DNA of 5,383 nucleotides from a virus (taxonomy: Duplodnaviria; Heunggongvirae; Uroviricota; Caudoviricetes): the IMG/VR virus record IMGVR_UViG_2609459799_000011; one strand, written 5' to 3'. Below the pieces are notes generated by a model that had not been told where the DNA came from, did not search any database, and worked only from the letters and a program-made list of their open reading frames with translations. Numbering within the stretch: the stretch's first letter is position 1; each line of letters begins with the position of its first letter. A program made the position numbers and the translations under genes. This document shows positions 216 to 5,383 of this stretch, one piece after another.

Positions 216-953
216 TCATTCACTCTCTTTCAAACCAGTTTTAACTGTTTGGGGTTTTGGGTAAGGCTGGACTTTGAATAGCTTTATGTTGAGGCGTTTT
301 CTGGCCCTCTTGTTCAGAAACCGGATGTAACGAAACTGTCGGAACTTATGAACACTGGCTCTGTCGATATTAGCCCTCAGATGTTCACCTCGTTGTCCGC
401 CTCGTTTAATGGCATTCCTGCAAATCTCGTGATACCACTCGCCATCAAGTTCATAGAATGTTGATTCATGGCTGCCTACATAATCAAAATTGCTTGCCTG
501 ATACACGACACCAAGACAGCCACAACGCTCATCTGCAAACGACTGAACCCACTGTACCTGCGGATAAAGCTGTCTGATAAGTTTGAGTGCGTAACTGATG
601 GCCCTTGATTCGGAGTTTCTCGGCATACAGTCATGCAGCCATAACCGGTTAAGCTCCATATATTCGCGGTTCTGCGTACCGGTTACGACGCGCGCTCCAC
701 TGTTTGGATTAAGGGCATAACCCCATTGCATTACGCCAACCAGCTCTCGTTCTGAAAATATACCCAGATGAAGGTAGGAGTTATTTACGAAACGGTGGCT
801 GTAATGTTTATTGACGATGACCAGTCGGGCCAGCCAGCAACTTATTGTCTCAACCCGTAACTCACGGGAGCCATAACCGACGATATTGTCGTTATAGAGA
901 ATAAGTTCAGGCGTGCTGATGATACGGGATGTAACTTGTTTTCTGTTCCCCAC
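216..953 (-). CDS. mom: Mom-like DNA modification protein (adenine-modifying anti-restriction function of Mu-like phages), 245 aa, probable GTG start.
   Basis: 245-aa ORF starts with GTG (no in-frame ATG until about residue 75), overlaps the 3' end of the upstream zinc-finger com-like gene by 47 nt in another frame, and has AGGAA 8 nt upstream. Identity is from synteny with com and gin; Mom sequence itself is not recalled. Confidence 0.75.
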
Positions 954-1107
954 GACAGGATTTCCTTGTGTATGTGGGGTGCTCTGTGGCGCTCGGAGAT
1001 GTGATTTGATTGAGGGTTTTACAGCGCGGACATTTTACTTCCAGATAACTGAAACTGGCCCGTGCCAGTAACTTGTTGCAGTGTCGGCACCGTATGTTTC
1101 GATACAT
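907..1107 (-). CDS. com: Com-like zinc-finger translational activator of mom, 66 aa.
   Basis: ATG start with AGGAGG about 10 nt upstream. Cys pairs CRHC and CPRC resemble the Mu Com zinc finger, and the N-terminus ([14 protein letters not shown]) resembles recalled Mu Com (MKSIRCKNCNKLL). It overlaps the mom start. Confidence 0.75.
948..979 (-). promoter_or_regulatory. mRNA stem-loop sequestering the mom start codon and Shine-Dalgarno (translation-inhibition structure).
   Basis: On the minus strand CCCCAC (plus 974-979) pairs with GUGGGG (plus 948-953), which contains the GUG start; the loop holds AAGGAAA, and CAAGGA can pair with UCCUGU inside it. Confidence 0.5.
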
Positions 1108-1330
1108 GGCCGCATAACCTCCTGCTTTGTTGATGATATCTTTCTCGCCTAATCGATCGACAAAAACGATCGATTCGATGTGTTTAATTGATACAACAAA
1201 TAGATTGAAAAGTCATCAACAATGATTCAGGGAGGTGATTATTTACTAAAAGAAAACGAAGACTTAGGGTGTGAAAACGATCATAAAATGATCATTTTAT
1301 TGACTTTTTATCCAGTGAAGGTAGGATCGC
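1108..1330 (-). promoter_or_regulatory. GATC-rich upstream region of com-mom; candidate Dam-methylation-sensitive promoter control region.
   Basis: Five GATC sites in about 175 bp (1155, 1168, 1279, 1290, 1324), in palindromic contexts: TCGATCGA (1153-1160), CGATCGAT (1167-1174), and the 14-bp perfect palindrome AAAATGATCATTTT (1285-1298). No promoter hexamers could be assigned with confidence. Confidence 0.4.
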
Positions 1331-1367
1331 GCGCATATGTAGTATGTTTCAAATCAACAGGATACTA

Positions 1368-1406
1368 CATAAAAGGGAAACCCAGCATAGCTGGAACTAT
1401 GCTGGG
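1368..1406 (-). terminator. Candidate rho-independent terminator for leftward transcription.
   Basis: Perfect 10-bp inverted repeat CCCAGCATAG (1381-1390) / CTATGCTGGG (1397-1406) with a 6-nt loop; on the minus strand it is followed by UUUCCCUUUU. Confidence 0.45.
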
Positions 1407-1513
1407 TCAATCTGTAAAAACTTGCATCAATGCTTTACTTCGAGCTCGTGGCGTATCCTATGATATTCCCCGGTCTCCTGTAAAGCAGAGATATATCTGT
1501 TCAGGCAGGAAAA

Positions 1514-1720
1514 ATGGATAAACTAACCACAGACCCAAAGTTACAGGCTGCGCGAATTGCAGCTGATATTACAATTGCAGCAATGACATCCACCAGGGGT
1601 AACTTTACCTCTTTTCATACAGCAGGTGATTCATCCGCTATGCAGTTATGGAACGCGTGCTTTTCTGATGTAATTCGTGCAATCAGCGAGTCAGTTGACC
1701 TTCGCGAACCGCAAAAATAG
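1514..1720 (+). CDS. Hypothetical small protein, 68 aa.
   Basis: ATG preceded by AGGCAGGAAAA. It is convergent with the next ORF and overlaps its 3' end by 38 nt, so one of the two may be spurious. No recognisable motif. Confidence 0.35.
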   Translation: MDKLTTDPKLQAARIAADITIAAMTSTRGNFTSFHTAGDSSAMQLWNACFSDVIRAISESVDLREPQK

Positions 1721-1883
1721 CGCATCTTGGGGTACACAGGATCTGCATAGCTATCCACATTGCGGTGGCGAAGTTTCGATCCTGTAATGTATCTTCATCA
1801 AGTCCTGAACGTAGCGCATTGATAATTTCCGCGCTTAATCTTTCTAGGCCTTTGGTATCAGGTTGCTTTTTATTCTTGTCCAT
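1683..1883 (-). CDS. Hypothetical small protein, 66 aa from the internal ATG (78 aa if the upstream ATG at 1919 is used).
   Basis: The internal ATG at 1883 has AGAGGA 8 nt upstream; the ATG at 1919 has no Shine-Dalgarno. Same strand as the two small genes upstream. Confidence 0.4.
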   Translation of the reverse strand: MDKNKKQPDTKGLERLSAEIINALRSGLDEDTLQDRNFATAMWIAMQILCTPRCAIFAVREGQLTR

Positions 1884-1958
1884 GATTATTGTCCTCTGAT
1901 TGGTATATAAAGCGCCCATGAAAATAAAACCGACAGGAGAAACTGCCGGTTTGTATTG

Positions 1959-2213
1959 TTACATCATGGTGCTGTCAGTTCCGGGCTGAGCCGGTTCTGG
2001 TTGCTCTGGCTGCGCGTCGGTTTTCGGTTCATTATCAGCATCACTGGCCGCTGCTGCTGGCCCAATAAGTTTTTCCAGCACCTCATCAACGTAAGTGTCG
2101 ATTTGTGCCTCAAAATCCTTGCGGACCTGCGCTTTCAGCAACTTATTTACTTCACCGGAATACAGTGCCTGTTTTACCAGGTCTTCAGTGACGGTGCCTT
2201 TAATTTCTGGCAT
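1959..2213 (-). CDS. Hypothetical acidic protein, 84 aa, with a helical-looking N-terminal half and a Pro/Ala/Gln/Glu-rich tail.
   Basis: ATG with strong AAGGAGG 6 nt upstream; 35 nt downstream of the preceding small gene; acidic composition. Confidence 0.55.
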   Translation of the reverse strand: MPEIKGTVTEDLVKQALYSGEVNKLLKAQVRKDFEAQIDTYVDEVLEKLIGPAAAASDADNEPKTDAQPEQPEPAQPGTDSTMM

Positions 2214-2248
2214 GTATATCCTCCTTATGCGGGAATAAAGCCCTGCAA

Positions 2249-2431
2249 TCAGGGCTGGGTCGGGTCTTTTGGGAGCGGAGTTGCCTGCGCTGTTTTACTG
2301 AGTTTTTCAGCTGCTGCGTCCTCAATTTTGCGGCGAACATAATTTCTGATGGCCTTATAACCACCACTCACCAGATATAACGCACATACTGCCGTGCAGA
2401 AATACAATAAAATAAGCTGTAAAAATGTCAT
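2249..2431 (-). CDS. Hypothetical small single-pass membrane protein, 60 aa from ATG at 2431 (the ORF track starts at a TTG at 2443).
   Basis: ATG at 2431 with GGGAGGG 5 nt upstream. Residues about 3-23 (FLQLILLYFCTAVCALYLVSG) form a hydrophobic helix followed by a charged tail. Confidence 0.5.
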   Translation of the reverse strand: MTFLQLILLYFCTAVCALYLVSGGYKAIRNYVRRKIEDAAAEKLSKTAQATPLPKDPTQP

Positions 2432-2526
2432 TATCCCTCCCAATTATTGACATGGTGTTGACACCGGTAATATCTGTTAGGTAAAAAGGTGCACTGCATT
2501 TTTTGCTTTGGATATAACGATCTTTT

Positions 2527-2568
2527 TGCCGCCGGTTTCTTGTTTTCCCTTACCGGCGGCATTTTTTT
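2527..2568 (+). terminator. Rho-independent terminator oriented for rightward (plus-strand) transcription, with no plus-strand gene upstream.
   Basis: 10-bp stem TGCCGCCGGT (2527-2536) / ACCGGCGGCA (2552-2561) followed by TTTTTTT (2562-2568). On the minus strand the hairpin is followed by A-rich sequence, so it is not a canonical terminator for the esterase gene. Confidence 0.45.
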
Positions 2569-2575
2569 ATCCTGC

Positions 2576-4630
2576 TTACGCGTTATTCACTTCCACCACG
2601 ATACTGTCAATCAGTACCGGGTAAGTCGCATTTTTAGTGATATCGGTCACGCGCAACTTGTCTGCCGTAAACGTGCCGACCGGAGACTGCGACAGCATGA
2701 ATGGTGTCCCGTCCTTACCATCAATGACCGGCGTCACCTCAATACTGTTGTTACCGGCAAAACGGAAGCCCAGCGTATGCCATTCGTTATTAAATGCGCC
2801 GAATGACCCCAGCTTCGTGTTCTGCGCCGTGTTTCCTTTGTGATACATCACGTTAAGGTCTGTGGCATCGCTCTGTACGTAGAACGATGCCAGCAGGTTA
2901 TGACCGGCATTTCCTTCCAGAGTAACCCCTTGCGGCAGGGCAGAAACCGGCCAGTACAGCGCCAGTGCGTACTGATTAGCCGTAAGCGCGCCATCGAGTT
3001 TAAAACGACAACTGACAAGACCACCTTTACCCAGCAGGTCCGCACCATTACCAGCATCATGCTCAAGGTACCAGGGGGCTCTTCCTGTTTCCTTGGTCAG
3101 TTTCATTGCCTTACCCCCGCTGGCTCCGGCATCATCCACGATTTGAGCCTTGCCACCTCCGGCAGCCCAACCCTGTGGTGTCAACCGTCCTTCAGACTCA
3201 GATGCCCGGTAAGCAAATAGCGTACTCATCGTCGTGGTGTCTGCGGGTGGCGTGGACGGTTTTGATGGTGTATCAGGTGACGGCTTCTCATCCGGTGGTG
3301 TCACGGTCTGCCCGCGCATCAGTTCAGCCGTGCGCCCTGCATGGAGCATAATAGCTGAGGCCAGACGGTCTGAAATGACGCCCCTGCGTGCCCATGAGCT
3401 GAAATGGCTGTCACGCTGTGTCGAAACAAAACTGCCCTGGGTTCGGGATGCTGCACCGTAATACCCGACAGCCACAATATCCGGGTCTTCCGCCGGAGCA
3501 TTCGTTGGCGTGCTCTGTCCATTCTCATCCGTCAGGAACGGTACAAAGAAAATTTTCTGTGCTTCCTTGCCTTTGTAGCCACCGTATACTGCCTCATATT
3601 TATCGGTGCCAGCGTTTTTCCAGTAATACGTGGTATCACCGCAAATCCACGGCACCGTGGTGGCATTTCCACTCACGCACTGCGCAGCAAGCGGAGCCAG
3701 GTCAGTTCTGAACTGCTGAACCATGGCCGTGAATAAACTATTATGCTGCTGGCTTCCTGAGGCAAGGTCTGCCTCTCCCTGCATCCAGACCACAGCCAGA
3801 AGTTTGTTTTTCGGGTTTTTCGCCAGCGCGACTTTGGTGCGGCTTACCAGGTCCTGATACAGAGGTTTACCGGCCCCCCAGCGTGAAGAATCAGCGGAAG
3901 CACCGCTGGCCTCACTGAATGAGCCGTCGGCTCCAGTGGTGAATGCTGACCCGCCACGACAACAGGGCACCAGAAGTATCCCGGCATTCTGTGGGATATA
4001 GGGAAGCAGTTTTTTGGCAATATGCAACCCCTGACCGACAGTCCCGTACTGGCCTTTTGCCAGATCAGCTTTCGGGTGGTTTATCCCGCTCATATCCTGA
4101 ACATCATGCAGGCAGTGGTCTGCCGGAATGATGTCGTTGTATGTACACGACGTACCGTTGGGCGTTACCGTACTGCGGCGTGCCAGTTGCTTAATGCGTG
4201 GGTCCGGGCGGTCAAACGAATCCGGTAACGGCAGCCCCTCGCCGTAGGCCATGCCATTTGACTGACCCGCGAGAATGACAACAAAGTAATATTCCGGCTC
4301 TGAACTGCTGCCATTCGTGCTACCGGAAGGCCCGGCGTTATCCGGTGCATTCCAGTCGGAGGGCGTGAGCGTTCCGGCCACGTCAGATGTGATTGGAATG
4401 ATGCCAGTCACGCCTGAACTGGTGATTTCTGCACTGGGATTACCGGATACCGGCATTACCCATAATGGCTCTTTCGTGCTGAAGCGGATCACGCAGTCTG
4501 CGAAGGTGATCCCCCCTTTATTACCCGAAGGGCGGAAAGGGCTTTCAATAAATGCCACCGTGCCACCGGCAACCTTGACTGAAAACTCTCCGGGCATGGC
4601 GGAGAGCATTTTCCACTTGGAGTCTGACAT
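2576..4630 (-). CDS. Putative carbohydrate O-acetylesterase of the SASA/SGNH-hydrolase type (phage NanS-p-like), 684 aa, with a Pro/Thr-rich linker and lectin-like C-terminal domain.
   Basis: Motifs LAGQSNG (residues 120-126; Ser124 at nt 4259-4261), WMQGEAD (282-288) and DSH (407-409) resemble sialate O-acetylesterase family signatures as recalled. Linker QTVTPPDEKPSPDTPSKPSTPP is at about residues 441-468 (nt 3227-3310), followed by a roughly 215-residue C-terminal region. No N-terminal signal peptide is evident. Confidence 0.8.
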   Translation of the reverse strand: MSDSKWKMLSAMPGEFSVKVAGGTVAFIESPFRPSGNKGGITFADCVIRFSTKEPLWVMPVSGNPSAEITSSGVTGIIPITSDVAGTLTPSDWNAPDNAGPSGSTNGSSSEPEYYFVVILAGQSNGMAYGEGLPLPDSFDRPDPRIKQLARRSTVTPNGTSCTYNDIIPADHCLHDVQDMSGINHPKADLAKGQYGTVGQGLHIAKKLLPYIPQNAGILLVPCCRGGSAFTTGADGSFSEASGASADSSRWGAGKPLYQDLVSRTKVALAKNPKNKLLAVVWMQGEADLASGSQQHNSLFTAMVQQFRTDLAPLAAQCVSGNATTVPWICGDTTYYWKNAGTDKYEAVYGGYKGKEAQKIFFVPFLTDENGQSTPTNAPAEDPDIVAVGYYGAASRTQGSFVSTQRDSHFSSWARRGVISDRLASAIMLHAGRTAELMRGQTVTPPDEKPSPDTPSKPSTPPADTTTMSTLFAYRASESEGRLTPQGWAAGGGKAQIVDDAGASGGKAMKLTKETGRAPWYLEHDAGNGADLLGKGGLVSCRFKLDGALTANQYALALYWPVSALPQGVTLEGNAGHNLLASFYVQSDATDLNVMYHKGNTAQNTKLGSFGAFNNEWHTLGFRFAGNNSIEVTPVIDGKDGTPFMLSQSPVGTFTADKLRVTDITKNATYPVLIDSIVVEVNNA

Positions 4631-4703
4631 CGTCTTTTCTGCCTGTTTCTGAATTAAACAGAGTCAGAATAGCGACCGCTGAAAAATATGTGTTTTGCGG
4701 AAA

Positions 4704-4735
4704 TTCAAAAAAGCGTCACGGTACTTTTGGTGACG
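4704..4735 (-). terminator. Weak candidate terminator overlapping the invertase stop codon.
   Basis: Minus strand: stem CGUCAC (plus 4730-4735) / GUGACG (plus 4714-4719) with a 10-nt loop, then C plus UUUUUU (plus A-run 4707-4712). The invertase stop codon lies within the 3' arm. Short stem and large loop suggest it is leaky. Confidence 0.35.
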
Positions 4736-5288
4736 GAGCTGGTGAGGCAGGAAAATAACGATAAAGGGTGGAAAGGCCAATATCAAATATCAGTGCGATT
4801 TGTTTACGGGACTCGCCATTAGCCAGCAAACGGGCGATTTGCTCCCGCTCTTTCTCTGTCAGTTTCTGAGGTCTGCCGCCATGACGCCCCTGAGCACGGG
4901 CAGCAGCAAGACCCGCGCGTGTACGTTCAATAATGAGTTCCCGCTCCATTTCCGCCAGCGCGCCCATTATATGGAAAAAGAAACGTCCCATGGGAGTGGA
5001 TGTATCAATATTGTCCGTAATGCTGCGGAAGTTAACGCCGCGTTGCCGGAGTTCTTCTGTTAAAAGGACAAGGTGCTGCATACTGCGTCCAAGGCGATCC
5101 AGTTTCCAGACCAGCAGGGTATCCCCTGGCCGGAGTCGCTTTAATGCGCGTTTAAGTCCGGGACGCTCCCTTGTCTTACCGCTTATTCTGTCTTCGAAAA
5201 ACAGCTCACATCCTGCACATTCCAGCGCATTTCTTTGTAGCGCCGTATTCTGGTCATTTGTTGACACCCTGATATACCCAATCAGCAT
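4716..5288 (-). CDS. gin: Serine DNA invertase of the Gin/Hin/Pin/Cin family, 190 aa.
   Basis: N-terminus MLIGYIRVSTNDQNT...LQRNAL, the stretch GDTLLVWKLDRLGRSM, MGRFFFHIMGALAEMERELIIERT and a C-terminal helix-turn-helix (LSTLYRY) closely match Gin and Hin as recalled. AAGGAA lies 5 nt upstream of the ATG. The symbol gin is chosen from the com-mom context. Confidence 0.9.
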   Translation of the reverse strand: MLIGYIRVSTNDQNTALQRNALECAGCELFFEDRISGKTRERPGLKRALKRLRPGDTLLVWKLDRLGRSMQHLVLLTEELRQRGVNFRSITDNIDTSTPMGRFFFHIMGALAEMERELIIERTRAGLAAARAQGRHGGRPQKLTEKEREQIARLLANGESRKQIALIFDIGLSTLYRYFPASPAPSPKVP

Positions 5289-5353
5289 ACGATTTCCTTA
5301 TTATAAAAAGCCGGAATTGTCGCATGAGGAATAAAACAGAGTTAATCCTGGCT

Positions 5354-5379
5354 TTCCTGAAAACCTCGGTTTACGGGAA
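5354..5379. other. gix/hix-type 26-bp invertase crossover site (imperfect palindrome around a 2-bp core).
   Basis: TTCCTGAAAACC-TC-GGTTTACGGGAA; the two 12-bp halves are near-perfect inverted repeats and resemble recalled gixL (TTCCTGTAAACCGAGGTTTTGGATAA). It lies 66 bp upstream of the invertase start. Confidence 0.7.
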
Positions 5380-5383
5380 ACGG

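Follow-up and report, generated by a model that had tools for sequence, protein, structure and literature searches.

The stretch of DNA considered here, viz. 5,383 nucleotides of the IMG/VR virus record IMGVR_UViG_2609459799_000011 (Caudoviricetes), which at its full length is referred to below as the window, raises the question of what a gene resembling the sialate O-acetylesterases is doing beside a phage DNA invertase, and of how the protein that it encodes is related to the esterases of this kind already known. The gene is a complete, ATG-initiated open reading frame (ORF) coding for 684 amino acids on the minus strand (positions 2576..4630, with the stop codon at 2576-2578), which was identified in the ORF list and is supported by matches in Pfam and the PDB as well as by the RefSeq coding sequence WP_001284084.1 of Escherichia coli NCCP15648, whose start and stop are identical. 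The exact sequence of this protein heads a cluster with 599 member sequences, for which the database names "sialate O-acetylesterase" or "DUF6645 domain-containing protein" have already been given, while NCBIfam contained no model matching the 684-residue protein. Based on the results described here, the gene product is very probably a NanS-p-type sialate O-acetylesterase borne by a prophage. A first-pass annotation, made from the sequence of the window, had described a three-part protein with esterase-like motifs and a lectin-like C-terminus resembling the NanS-p-type esterases of prophages; this observation is confirmed and its interpretation is supported as essentially correct. The annotation missed that the first ~110 residues are not of the DUF1737 type, and that the element carrying the gene is a Mu-like prophage.

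The catalytic part of the protein is an SGNH/SASA domain resembling NanS, which covers residues 112-435 (positions 3326..4297, minus strand), as placed by the match to the structure of E. coli NanS (YjhS; PDB 3PT5). In the comparison with this structure, residues 110-428 show 58% identity (E 1.8e-117), and the Pfam SASA family (PF03629) matches residues 117-312 with a score of 51.3 bits (cut-off 24.8; E 1.5e-13). A SASA match above threshold is thus present, as the first-pass annotation had predicted; the extent expected for it (residues 115-440) is not that of the Pfam match, although the region of homology to NanS does reach from residue 110 to 428. All four SGNH blocks align column for column with those of NanS, whose positions are taken from PMC10792757: block I is GQSNG at residues 122-126 (GQSNA at 17-21 in NanS), block II is RGGSAF at 225-230 (RGGSAF at 120-125), block III is MQGEAD at 283-288 (MQGEFD at 178-183) and block V is RDSHFS at 406-411 (R-x-SHFS at 298-303). 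With the roles of the NanS residues taken from two reviews (PMC9487903 and PMC10792757), it therefore follows from this alignment that Ser124 (codon 4259-4261) and His409 (codon 3404-3406) are the counterparts of Ser19 and His301 of NanS. The three motifs that had been singled out at first sight all lie within these blocks or overlap them, viz. GQSN at residues 122-125, in which the serine is indeed Ser124, WMQGEAD at 282-288 and DSH at 407-409.

The canonical Asp of block V (DxxH) is not found in this protein, in which the residue three positions before His409 is Arg406, as it is in NanS. However, NanS itself lacks a block V Asp, and a main-chain carbonyl serves as the acid in its place (PMC9487903, PMC10792757). 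Further, the position of Asp407 is variable and is occupied by S, A or P in other alleles. Due to this, the DSH motif leads to the right histidine, but a test that looks for a Ser-His-Asp arrangement around Ser124, the absence of which the first-pass annotation would have counted against an esterase, is inappropriate for the NanS subgroup. The missing Asp is a feature of this subgroup and it is no argument against membership in the SASA/SGNH family.

The remainder of the protein following the catalytic domain consists of a Pro/Thr-rich linker (residues 436-468; positions 3227..3325, minus strand), recognised by its composition of 24% Pro and 21% Thr and differing in length between alleles, and of a lectin-like jelly-roll domain belonging to the DUF6645 family (residues 469-684; positions 2579..3226, minus strand). 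The Pfam model for DUF6645 (PF20350) matches residues 533-650 (E 7e-68), and residues 469-683 align end to end with the solved C-terminal domain of a NanS-p protein (PDB 6YP6; E 7e-98, 69% identity). For the corresponding domain of vb_24B_21, which is a lectin-like jelly-roll, the residues Y510, Y515, Y540 and F611 have been proposed to bind carbohydrate (PMC10462455), and all four of these aromatic residues are retained here, as Y554, Y559, Y584 and F654, respectively. The linker and the lectin-like C-terminus named in the first-pass annotation are therefore both present, and the SASA match together with the identities to 3PT5 and 6YP6 bears out its assignment to the NanS-p type. The description of the protein as three-part holds for the parts that were named; however, the segments number four when another linker, which is rich in Ser, Gly and Pro and lies ahead of the catalytic domain (residues 83-111; positions 4298..4384, minus strand), is counted.

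This first linker is the junction between an N-terminus of a Mu type and the part of the protein that is common to the lambdoid NanS-p proteins. Two architectures are seen among the homologues. The first, comprising ~22 sequence clusters of 678-691 amino acids, contains SASA and DUF6645 without DUF1737 and covers 98-100% of the query. The second, which is common, is of the type DUF1737-SASA-DUF6645 (640-655 amino acids); it includes the closest lambdoid NanS-p proteins and shows 84-91% identity over only the last ~85% of the query, from residue ~110 onward. In the alignment with the DUF1737-type proteins the similarity begins sharply at about residue 110 ("EPEYY"), whereas residues 1-100 show 10-29% identity to the lambdoid proteins in an alignment that is forced. 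DUF1737 (PF08410), which is detected in the homologues of the second type, is absent from the window protein, and Pfam offered nothing for residues 1-115 even at E<=10. Thus, DUF1737 is replaced at the N-terminus by an orphan domain (residues 1-82; positions 4385..4630, minus strand). A HMMER search with it against 1.84 billion representative sequences recovered only fragments of the same protein and a single relative with 30% identity. This relative is a fragment at the end of a Salmonella enterica contig, which includes the N-terminal domain, a Pro/Thr linker and the start of SASA, and its gene comes directly after the tail-fibre and invertase genes in a Mu-like prophage. No relative was detected in a scan of contigs from one genome per species using the N-terminal alignment, and word-indexed homologue searches with the N-terminus gave fragments only. 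Within IMG/VR, 34 loci contain the N-terminal domain, in two allele groups (95-100% and 57-62% identity), and it is always fused to a SASA esterase, in prophages that are all Mu-like and belong to E. coli, Shigella or Salmonella.

Residues 1-115 were modelled with AlphaFold from 11 sequences, and the quality of this model is moderate (mean predicted local distance difference test score (pLDDT) of 69, with 76-88 for residues 10-70). It contains six beta-strands across residues 7-79, and the linker that follows is of low confidence (pLDDT <50 at residues 82-109). A Foldseek search of the PDB with this model returned generic matches with E of 0.04 or higher; matches in BFVD were to uncharacterised phage proteins of ~90 amino acids (template modelling score ~0.6, E 0.008-0.05), and the structural neighbours include cupin dimerisation domains, e.g. 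those of Mif2p and CENP-C. These results suggest, with moderate confidence, that the N-terminal domain is a small, all-beta, cupin-like barrel, a prediction that concerns the fold class only and from which no function follows. The domain contains no histidine and a metal-binding cupin site is therefore unlikely. The domain is under purifying selection. The ratios of non-synonymous to synonymous change (dN/dS) determined by the Nei-Gojobori method for residues 1-82 were 0.04 for the window versus locus L020 (8 synonymous and 1 non-synonymous changes), 0.04 versus L023 (17 and 3) and 0.14 versus L022 (6 and 3), and these values of 0.04-0.14 are comparable with those of the SASA domain in the same pairs (0.09-0.14).

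The esterase gene is followed by two small genes on the same strand, encoding a membrane-type protein of the DUF1378 family (positions 2249..2443; PF07125, E 1e-32; the RefSeq start is the ATG at 2431) and a DUF826 protein (positions 1959..2213; PF05696, E 4e-15). The same two genes follow the esterase in the Shiga toxin (Stx) phage POCJ13, whose copies are 54% (DUF1378) and 45% (DUF826) identical to those of the window, as well as in all of the Mu-like loci. In POCJ13 the gene order is Q, stxAB, esterase, DUF1378, DUF826, holin, lysozyme and Rz, and this order has also been reported for Stx2a phages (PMC10462455). Hence, the unit esterase-DUF1378-DUF826 is common to two very different types of phages, whereas the genes flanking it are not shared.

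The DNA similarity of the window to Stx phages is confined to positions 2552-4302, and the individual domains of the protein differ in their affinities. The SASA domain of the window is 85-93% identical to lambdoid alleles versus 64-70% to other Mu-like alleles, and for the C-terminal domain the corresponding values are 81-93% and 42-74%. The Mu-like alleles of L002 and L039 are closer to POCJ13 (80% in SASA) than to the window, and L038 and L039 are identical (100%) in the N-terminus while showing 67% identity in SASA and 41% in the C-terminal domain. The enzyme and lectin modules have therefore been exchanged between lambdoid and Mu-like phages and the N-terminal module has not; this module follows the phage type. 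However, this linkage can also be explained neutrally, as recombination with lambdoid alleles needs homology and this is present only past residue ~110. A gene resembling nanS-p was also observed in three Escherichia phage records of 33-40 kb (vB_EcoM-569R5, vB_EcoM-705R2 and Entero_P88), which show 76% DNA identity to window positions 3777-4273 and in one of which the product is annotated as DUF1737 domain-containing; the esterase may thus occur in a further phage type, suspected from the size of the records to be P2-like.

The window itself forms the right-hand end of a transposable prophage of the Mu-like kind. In E. coli NCCP15648 this prophage interrupts a fimbrial usher gene beside elfD, and its genes are in the order head, tail, baseplate, tail-fibre, invertase, esterase, DUF1378, DUF826, a small variable region, com and mom. 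In the O157:H7 strain 380-94 the whole element measures ~38.7 kb, is inserted in siiEA, and contains genes for a repressor, a Mu-type transposase, an AAA ATPase, Gam, Mor, lysis, head and tail functions, the invertase, the esterase cassette, com and mom. The invertase of the window is a serine DNA invertase of the Gin/Hin type with 190 amino acids (positions 4716..5288, minus strand; Resolvase and HTH_7 domains; phrog_125), which closes the tail-fibre/invertible region, the tail-fibre genes being located upstream of it in L001. It lies 85 bp from the esterase gene on the same strand, so that the first-pass annotation had correctly placed an invertase directly upstream. At the other end of the window are com (positions 907-1107, minus strand; Pfam Zn_ribbon_Com) and mom (positions 216-953, minus strand; Pfam Mom), which define the right end of the prophage at about window position 88. 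The matches to the window in other genomes all begin at positions 80-88 and differ in their host flanks, which is what transposition should produce. The order invertase, esterase, DUF1378, DUF826, com, mom is found in ~30 IMG/VR loci, wherever the flanks are long enough, and in four annotated E. coli or phage records that were examined; a few variants lack the invertase, and in these the esterase directly follows a tail-fibre assembly gene. Of 5,426 complete E. coli genomes, 233 contain a com-mom module of this type, and many of these 233 belong to Shiga toxin-producing strains.

Since the tail operon through mom is on one strand, read-through late transcription of the esterase is plausible. 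A hairpin with a perfect 10-bp GC stem is located at positions 2527..2561, beginning 15 bp past the esterase stop codon; its fold z-scores are -3.6 (minus strand) and -4.5 (plus strand), and none of 200 shuffled sequences folded as well. An A7 run borders one side of it and an A5 run the other, a U7 run follows it on the plus strand only, and it resembles an intrinsic terminator only for transcription of the opposite (plus) strand. Hairpins resembling minus-strand terminators were also observed at 1379-1408 and 1927-1952. A search of Rfam gave no match in the window.

Taken together, these results point to the following mode of action for the NanS-p-type esterase of the Mu-like prophage. NanS is most active on 9-O-acetyl-Neu5Ac (PMC9487903), and recombinant NanS-p alleles from EDL933 and O104:H4 are active esterases, which enable growth on Neu5,9Ac2 and remove acetyl groups from mucin glycans (PMC8065619). 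By analogy, the central SGNH/SASA domain of the window protein would strip O-acetyl groups from sialic acids, with the 9-O-acetyl-Neu5Ac of mucin glycans as the probable preferred substrate. Judging from its aligned residues, Ser124 would act as the nucleophile and His409 as the base, with no acidic third residue, as in NanS, and the GQSN and (M)QGE blocks would form the unusual oxyanion hole of the SASA family. No evident signal peptide is present, in agreement with the first-pass annotation (the maximum mean Kyte-Doolittle value over 15 residues is 1.05 in the first 70 residues); the enzyme should therefore reach its substrate only on phage lysis, either free or attached to the particle. In this protein the DUF1737 capsid anchor of the homologue from phage phi24B has given way to an unrelated, selectively maintained domain of ~80 residues, predicted to be a beta-barrel, which is specific to Mu-like phages, and the catalytic and lectin modules recombine freely with those of lambdoid alleles.

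A number of points weigh against this account. The full-length AlphaFold model, based on 25 homologues, had a mean pLDDT of only 32, and the pairing of Ser124 and His409 in the active site is predicted from the alignment. Esterase activity is predicted for this and for all other Mu-like alleles by homology, and the substrate specificity is one that we deduce from NanS, at 58% identity, as well as from lambdoid alleles that are close to this one but may not be those that were tested. The lack of a signal peptide is a result of a hydrophobicity heuristic. Scans of the 85-bp spacer between invertase and esterase with consensus promoters and terminators yielded nothing convincing, and a hairpin that extends over the stop codon of the invertase does not fold better than shuffled sequences (z -0.4). 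Lastly, the assignment of the prophage to the type of Sp18 is tentative; it is suggested by the low-numbered accession WP_010917876 and by the published description of Sp18, a Mu-like element of O157 Sakai that is apparently intact (PMC2669165). Prophages of the Sp18 type are induced spontaneously and do not respond to mitomycin.

Within this framework, different explanations can be given for the role of the protein and particularly of its N-terminal domain. The explanation that survives best, to which we give a little under an even chance, is that the protein is a soluble "public good", which is freed at lysis and never becomes a part of the particle; the beneficiaries would be surviving lysogens growing on deacetylated sialic acid, and the barrel would serve for oligomerisation, stability or additional glycan binding. 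This is the classical model for NanS-p, based on the experiments on growth and mucin deacetylation cited above (PMC8065619), and it accords with the lack of a signal peptide and with the cupin dimerisation domains among the structural neighbours of the N-terminal model (Mif2p, CENP-C). However, it leaves unexplained why an N-terminal module specific to a phage type should stand in the position of DUF1737 and be under strong purifying selection. It is also at odds with the structural role recently described for a canonical member of the family, viz. gp84 (NanS-p) of phi24B, which decorates the capsid through a DUF1737 hexamer in the central hexons, and from which the esterase and lectin are later cleaved off (preprint 10.64898/2026.04.10.717836).

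The observations on gp84 lead to another explanation, which is tentative and less probable, that the N-terminal barrel is a new virion anchor, by which the esterase and lectin may be displayed on Mu-like particles, whether on the capsid, the tail or the tail fibre. By analogy, display of this kind on a myovirus would be the counterpart of the role played by DUF1737 in the podovirus phi24B, and it would help the particles in binding to, or moving through, mucus containing O-acetylated sialic acids. In favour of this explanation, the phi24B homologue is structural and is held by its N-terminal DUF1737, and the place of this domain is taken here by another small, constrained domain on a flexible linker. 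Further, the new domain strictly tracks the phage type while the enzyme modules are swapped; it is known only with SASA esterases and only from the Mu-like prophages of the three genera noted above; and the gene is co-oriented with, and adjoins, the tail-fibre/invertase block or, when the invertase is missing, comes after the tail-fibre assembly gene.

The linkage to the phage type has, as noted earlier, a neutral explanation, and the anchoring of the domain on the capsid can be assessed from a comparison of prophages carrying the two N-terminal allele groups (L001 and the window versus L041). The DNA identity between them is 94.6% in the head genes, 88.5% in the tail and baseplate genes and 95.7% in com-mom, but 67-79% from the tail-fibre tip through the invertase, esterase and DUF826. 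A hypervariable block (L001:25270-26220 and window 1900-5383 versus L041) is thus embedded in a backbone of 88-96% identity; the tail-fibre assembly genes are inside this block, and one of its breakpoints is between window positions 1492 and 1922. Co-variation of the N-terminal domain with the capsid genes is not supported by these results, as the N-terminal alleles are 57-60% identical where the capsid DNA is ~95% identical. As the N-terminal alleles are located in a hypervariable block together with host-range determinants, the capsid version of the anchoring is weakened, while this lack of tracking is what a soluble enzyme would show; a binding partner in the tail fibre is compatible with the results, and so is the lack of any partner. 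If the barrel is nonetheless an anchor, then the esterase-DUF1378-DUF826 unit could be a portable cassette for interaction with mucus, whose enzyme and lectin modules are traded between lambdoid and transposable phages, the anchor being particular to each type of phage, a proposal that we regard as possible and equally tentative.

The location of the gene in the hypervariable block also bears on an explanation that we consider improbable, viz. that the protein is a receptor modifier, whose true substrates are O-acetyl groups of bacterial surface glycans (O-antigen, capsule or polysialic acid), and which would act together with the variable tail fibres as an aid to adsorption or as a block to superinfection. 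The esterase shares this block (67-79% versus 88-96% DNA identity elsewhere) with the tail-fibre tips and the invertase, its C-terminal binding domain is very variable (down to 41% identity between alleles), and the idea has been raised for NanS-p (PMC8065619). However, the catalytic domain is near to NanS, with its preference for free 9-O-acetyl-Neu5Ac (PMC9487903), the NanS-p alleles that have been tested act on mucin sialic acids (PMC8065619), and in lambdoid phages the cassette is carried beside the lysis genes, far from the tail genes. Similarity over the full length to tail-fibre or tailspike proteins, which the first-pass annotation had named as a sign of a structural role, is likewise absent: no match to such families was found in Pfam, the PDB or the fold searches, and the lone match of this type is a weak and partial one to phrog_25867 ("tail protein"; residues 211-312, E 1e-6), which lies inside the SASA domain. 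The remaining explanation, that the gene is what is left of a lambdoid cassette, now in decay and without a function, may find some encouragement in the variable and often frameshifted or partial annotation of the ORFs between DUF826 and com, but it is extremely improbable and was rejected based on the conservation and dN/dS results, as an ORF of 678-691 amino acids is intact in the ~22 sequence clusters and in almost every locus that was examined, all domains have a dN/dS of 0.04-0.18, the catalytic and binding residues are all conserved, and three diverged lineages, that of Salmonella among them, have preserved the arrangement.

Some other observations concern the surroundings of the cassette and the element as a whole. 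The region between DUF826 and com (window 1110-1950) is variable, and its contents are present, absent, truncated or annotated as frameshifted across the loci; in the window the ORF list shows here two ORFs on the plus strand (1222-1521, matching phrog_26524, and 1514-1720) and one of 78 amino acids on the minus strand (1683-1919), to none of which Pfam or PADLOC gave an assignment. PADLOC also detected no defence-system match for the esterase or its small neighbours. The reading frames of com and mom overlap by 47 nucleotides (window 907-953), as they do in phage Mu, and the names given to Mom in RefSeq vary ("hypothetical protein", "protein mom", "adenine methylcarbamoylation protein" and "tRNA(Gly)-dependent adenine aminoacyltransferase"). 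In L002 (6165-7217, minus strand), and in one further genome match, the place of mom after com is taken by a gene of 350 codons resembling C5 DNA cytosine methyltransferases, which contains the motif GTPCQAFS and is named "DNA cytosine methyltransferase" in RefSeq; this looks like a swap of the DNA-modification gene controlled by Com. Mu-like phages were also seen inserted within other prophages (L002:5997-6000; L039:6028-6999). One such insertion, with an annotated target duplication of 4 bp, is inside Stx1a- and Stx2c-converting phages and another is in the portal gene of a lambdoid prophage of O145:H28. Lastly, an 80-nucleotide "tRNA-OTHER" is annotated by RefSeq opposite the head genes, between those for virion morphogenesis and head morphogenesis, and it is kept in both of the prophages compared (L001:41235-41314 and L041:20973-21052).

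The significance of these results is best seen in comparison with the known systems. The catalytic and lectin domains place the window protein in the NanS-p family, whose members let pathogenic E. coli feed on the O-acetylated sialic acids of mucin, and in this regard its assignment as an esterase is ordinary and well supported. What is of moderate interest is the N-terminal module specific to a phage type and the portable three-gene cassette, and no paper on a Mu-like nanS-p or its N-terminal domain was found in the open-access literature. The unit of enzyme and lectin, together with the two small genes that accompany it, occurs regularly in a second, very different type of phage, and surveys of nanS-p that are keyed to DUF1737 or to a lambdoid context will miss this Mu-like class. 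Further, as the N-terminal module alone differs according to the type of phage, these proteins offer a direct test of whether such modules of the NanS-p proteins are interchangeable virion anchors.

In comparison with chromosomal NanS (YjhS, 3PT5), the window protein shows 58% identity over residues 110-428, has identical or near-identical SGNH blocks and likewise lacks the block V Asp. However, NanS is a single-domain protein of ~326 amino acids encoded in the nanCMS sialic-acid operon, whereas the window protein is phage-borne and has in addition the N-terminal barrel, two linkers and the lectin-like domain. With the NanS-p proteins of lambdoid prophages (z1466/L0105 of 933W and vb_24B_21, i.e. 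gp84, of phi24B) it shares the SASA and DUF6645 domains, the Pro/Thr linker, the lack of a signal peptide and the downstream companions DUF1378 and DUF826. Two canonical features of the lambdoid proteins are absent while these companions are kept: DUF1737 is replaced by an unrelated ~80-residue beta-barrel with a longer linker, giving 684 instead of 636-657 amino acids, and the gene lies, not in a late operon between Q/stx and holin S, but between the invertase and com-mom of a Mu-like, myovirus-type prophage. The likeness to gp84 of phi24B is in the plan of the protein, viz. a small N-terminal domain, a flexible linker, the esterase, a second linker and the lectin, in a temperate E. coli phage; however, the DUF1737 of gp84 consists of one helix and three strands, whereas the domain in its place here is non-homologous and predicted to be all-beta and cupin-like, and while gp84 has been reported to decorate the capsid, display of the Mu-like version on virions is hypothetical, and its N-terminal alleles do not track the capsid genes.

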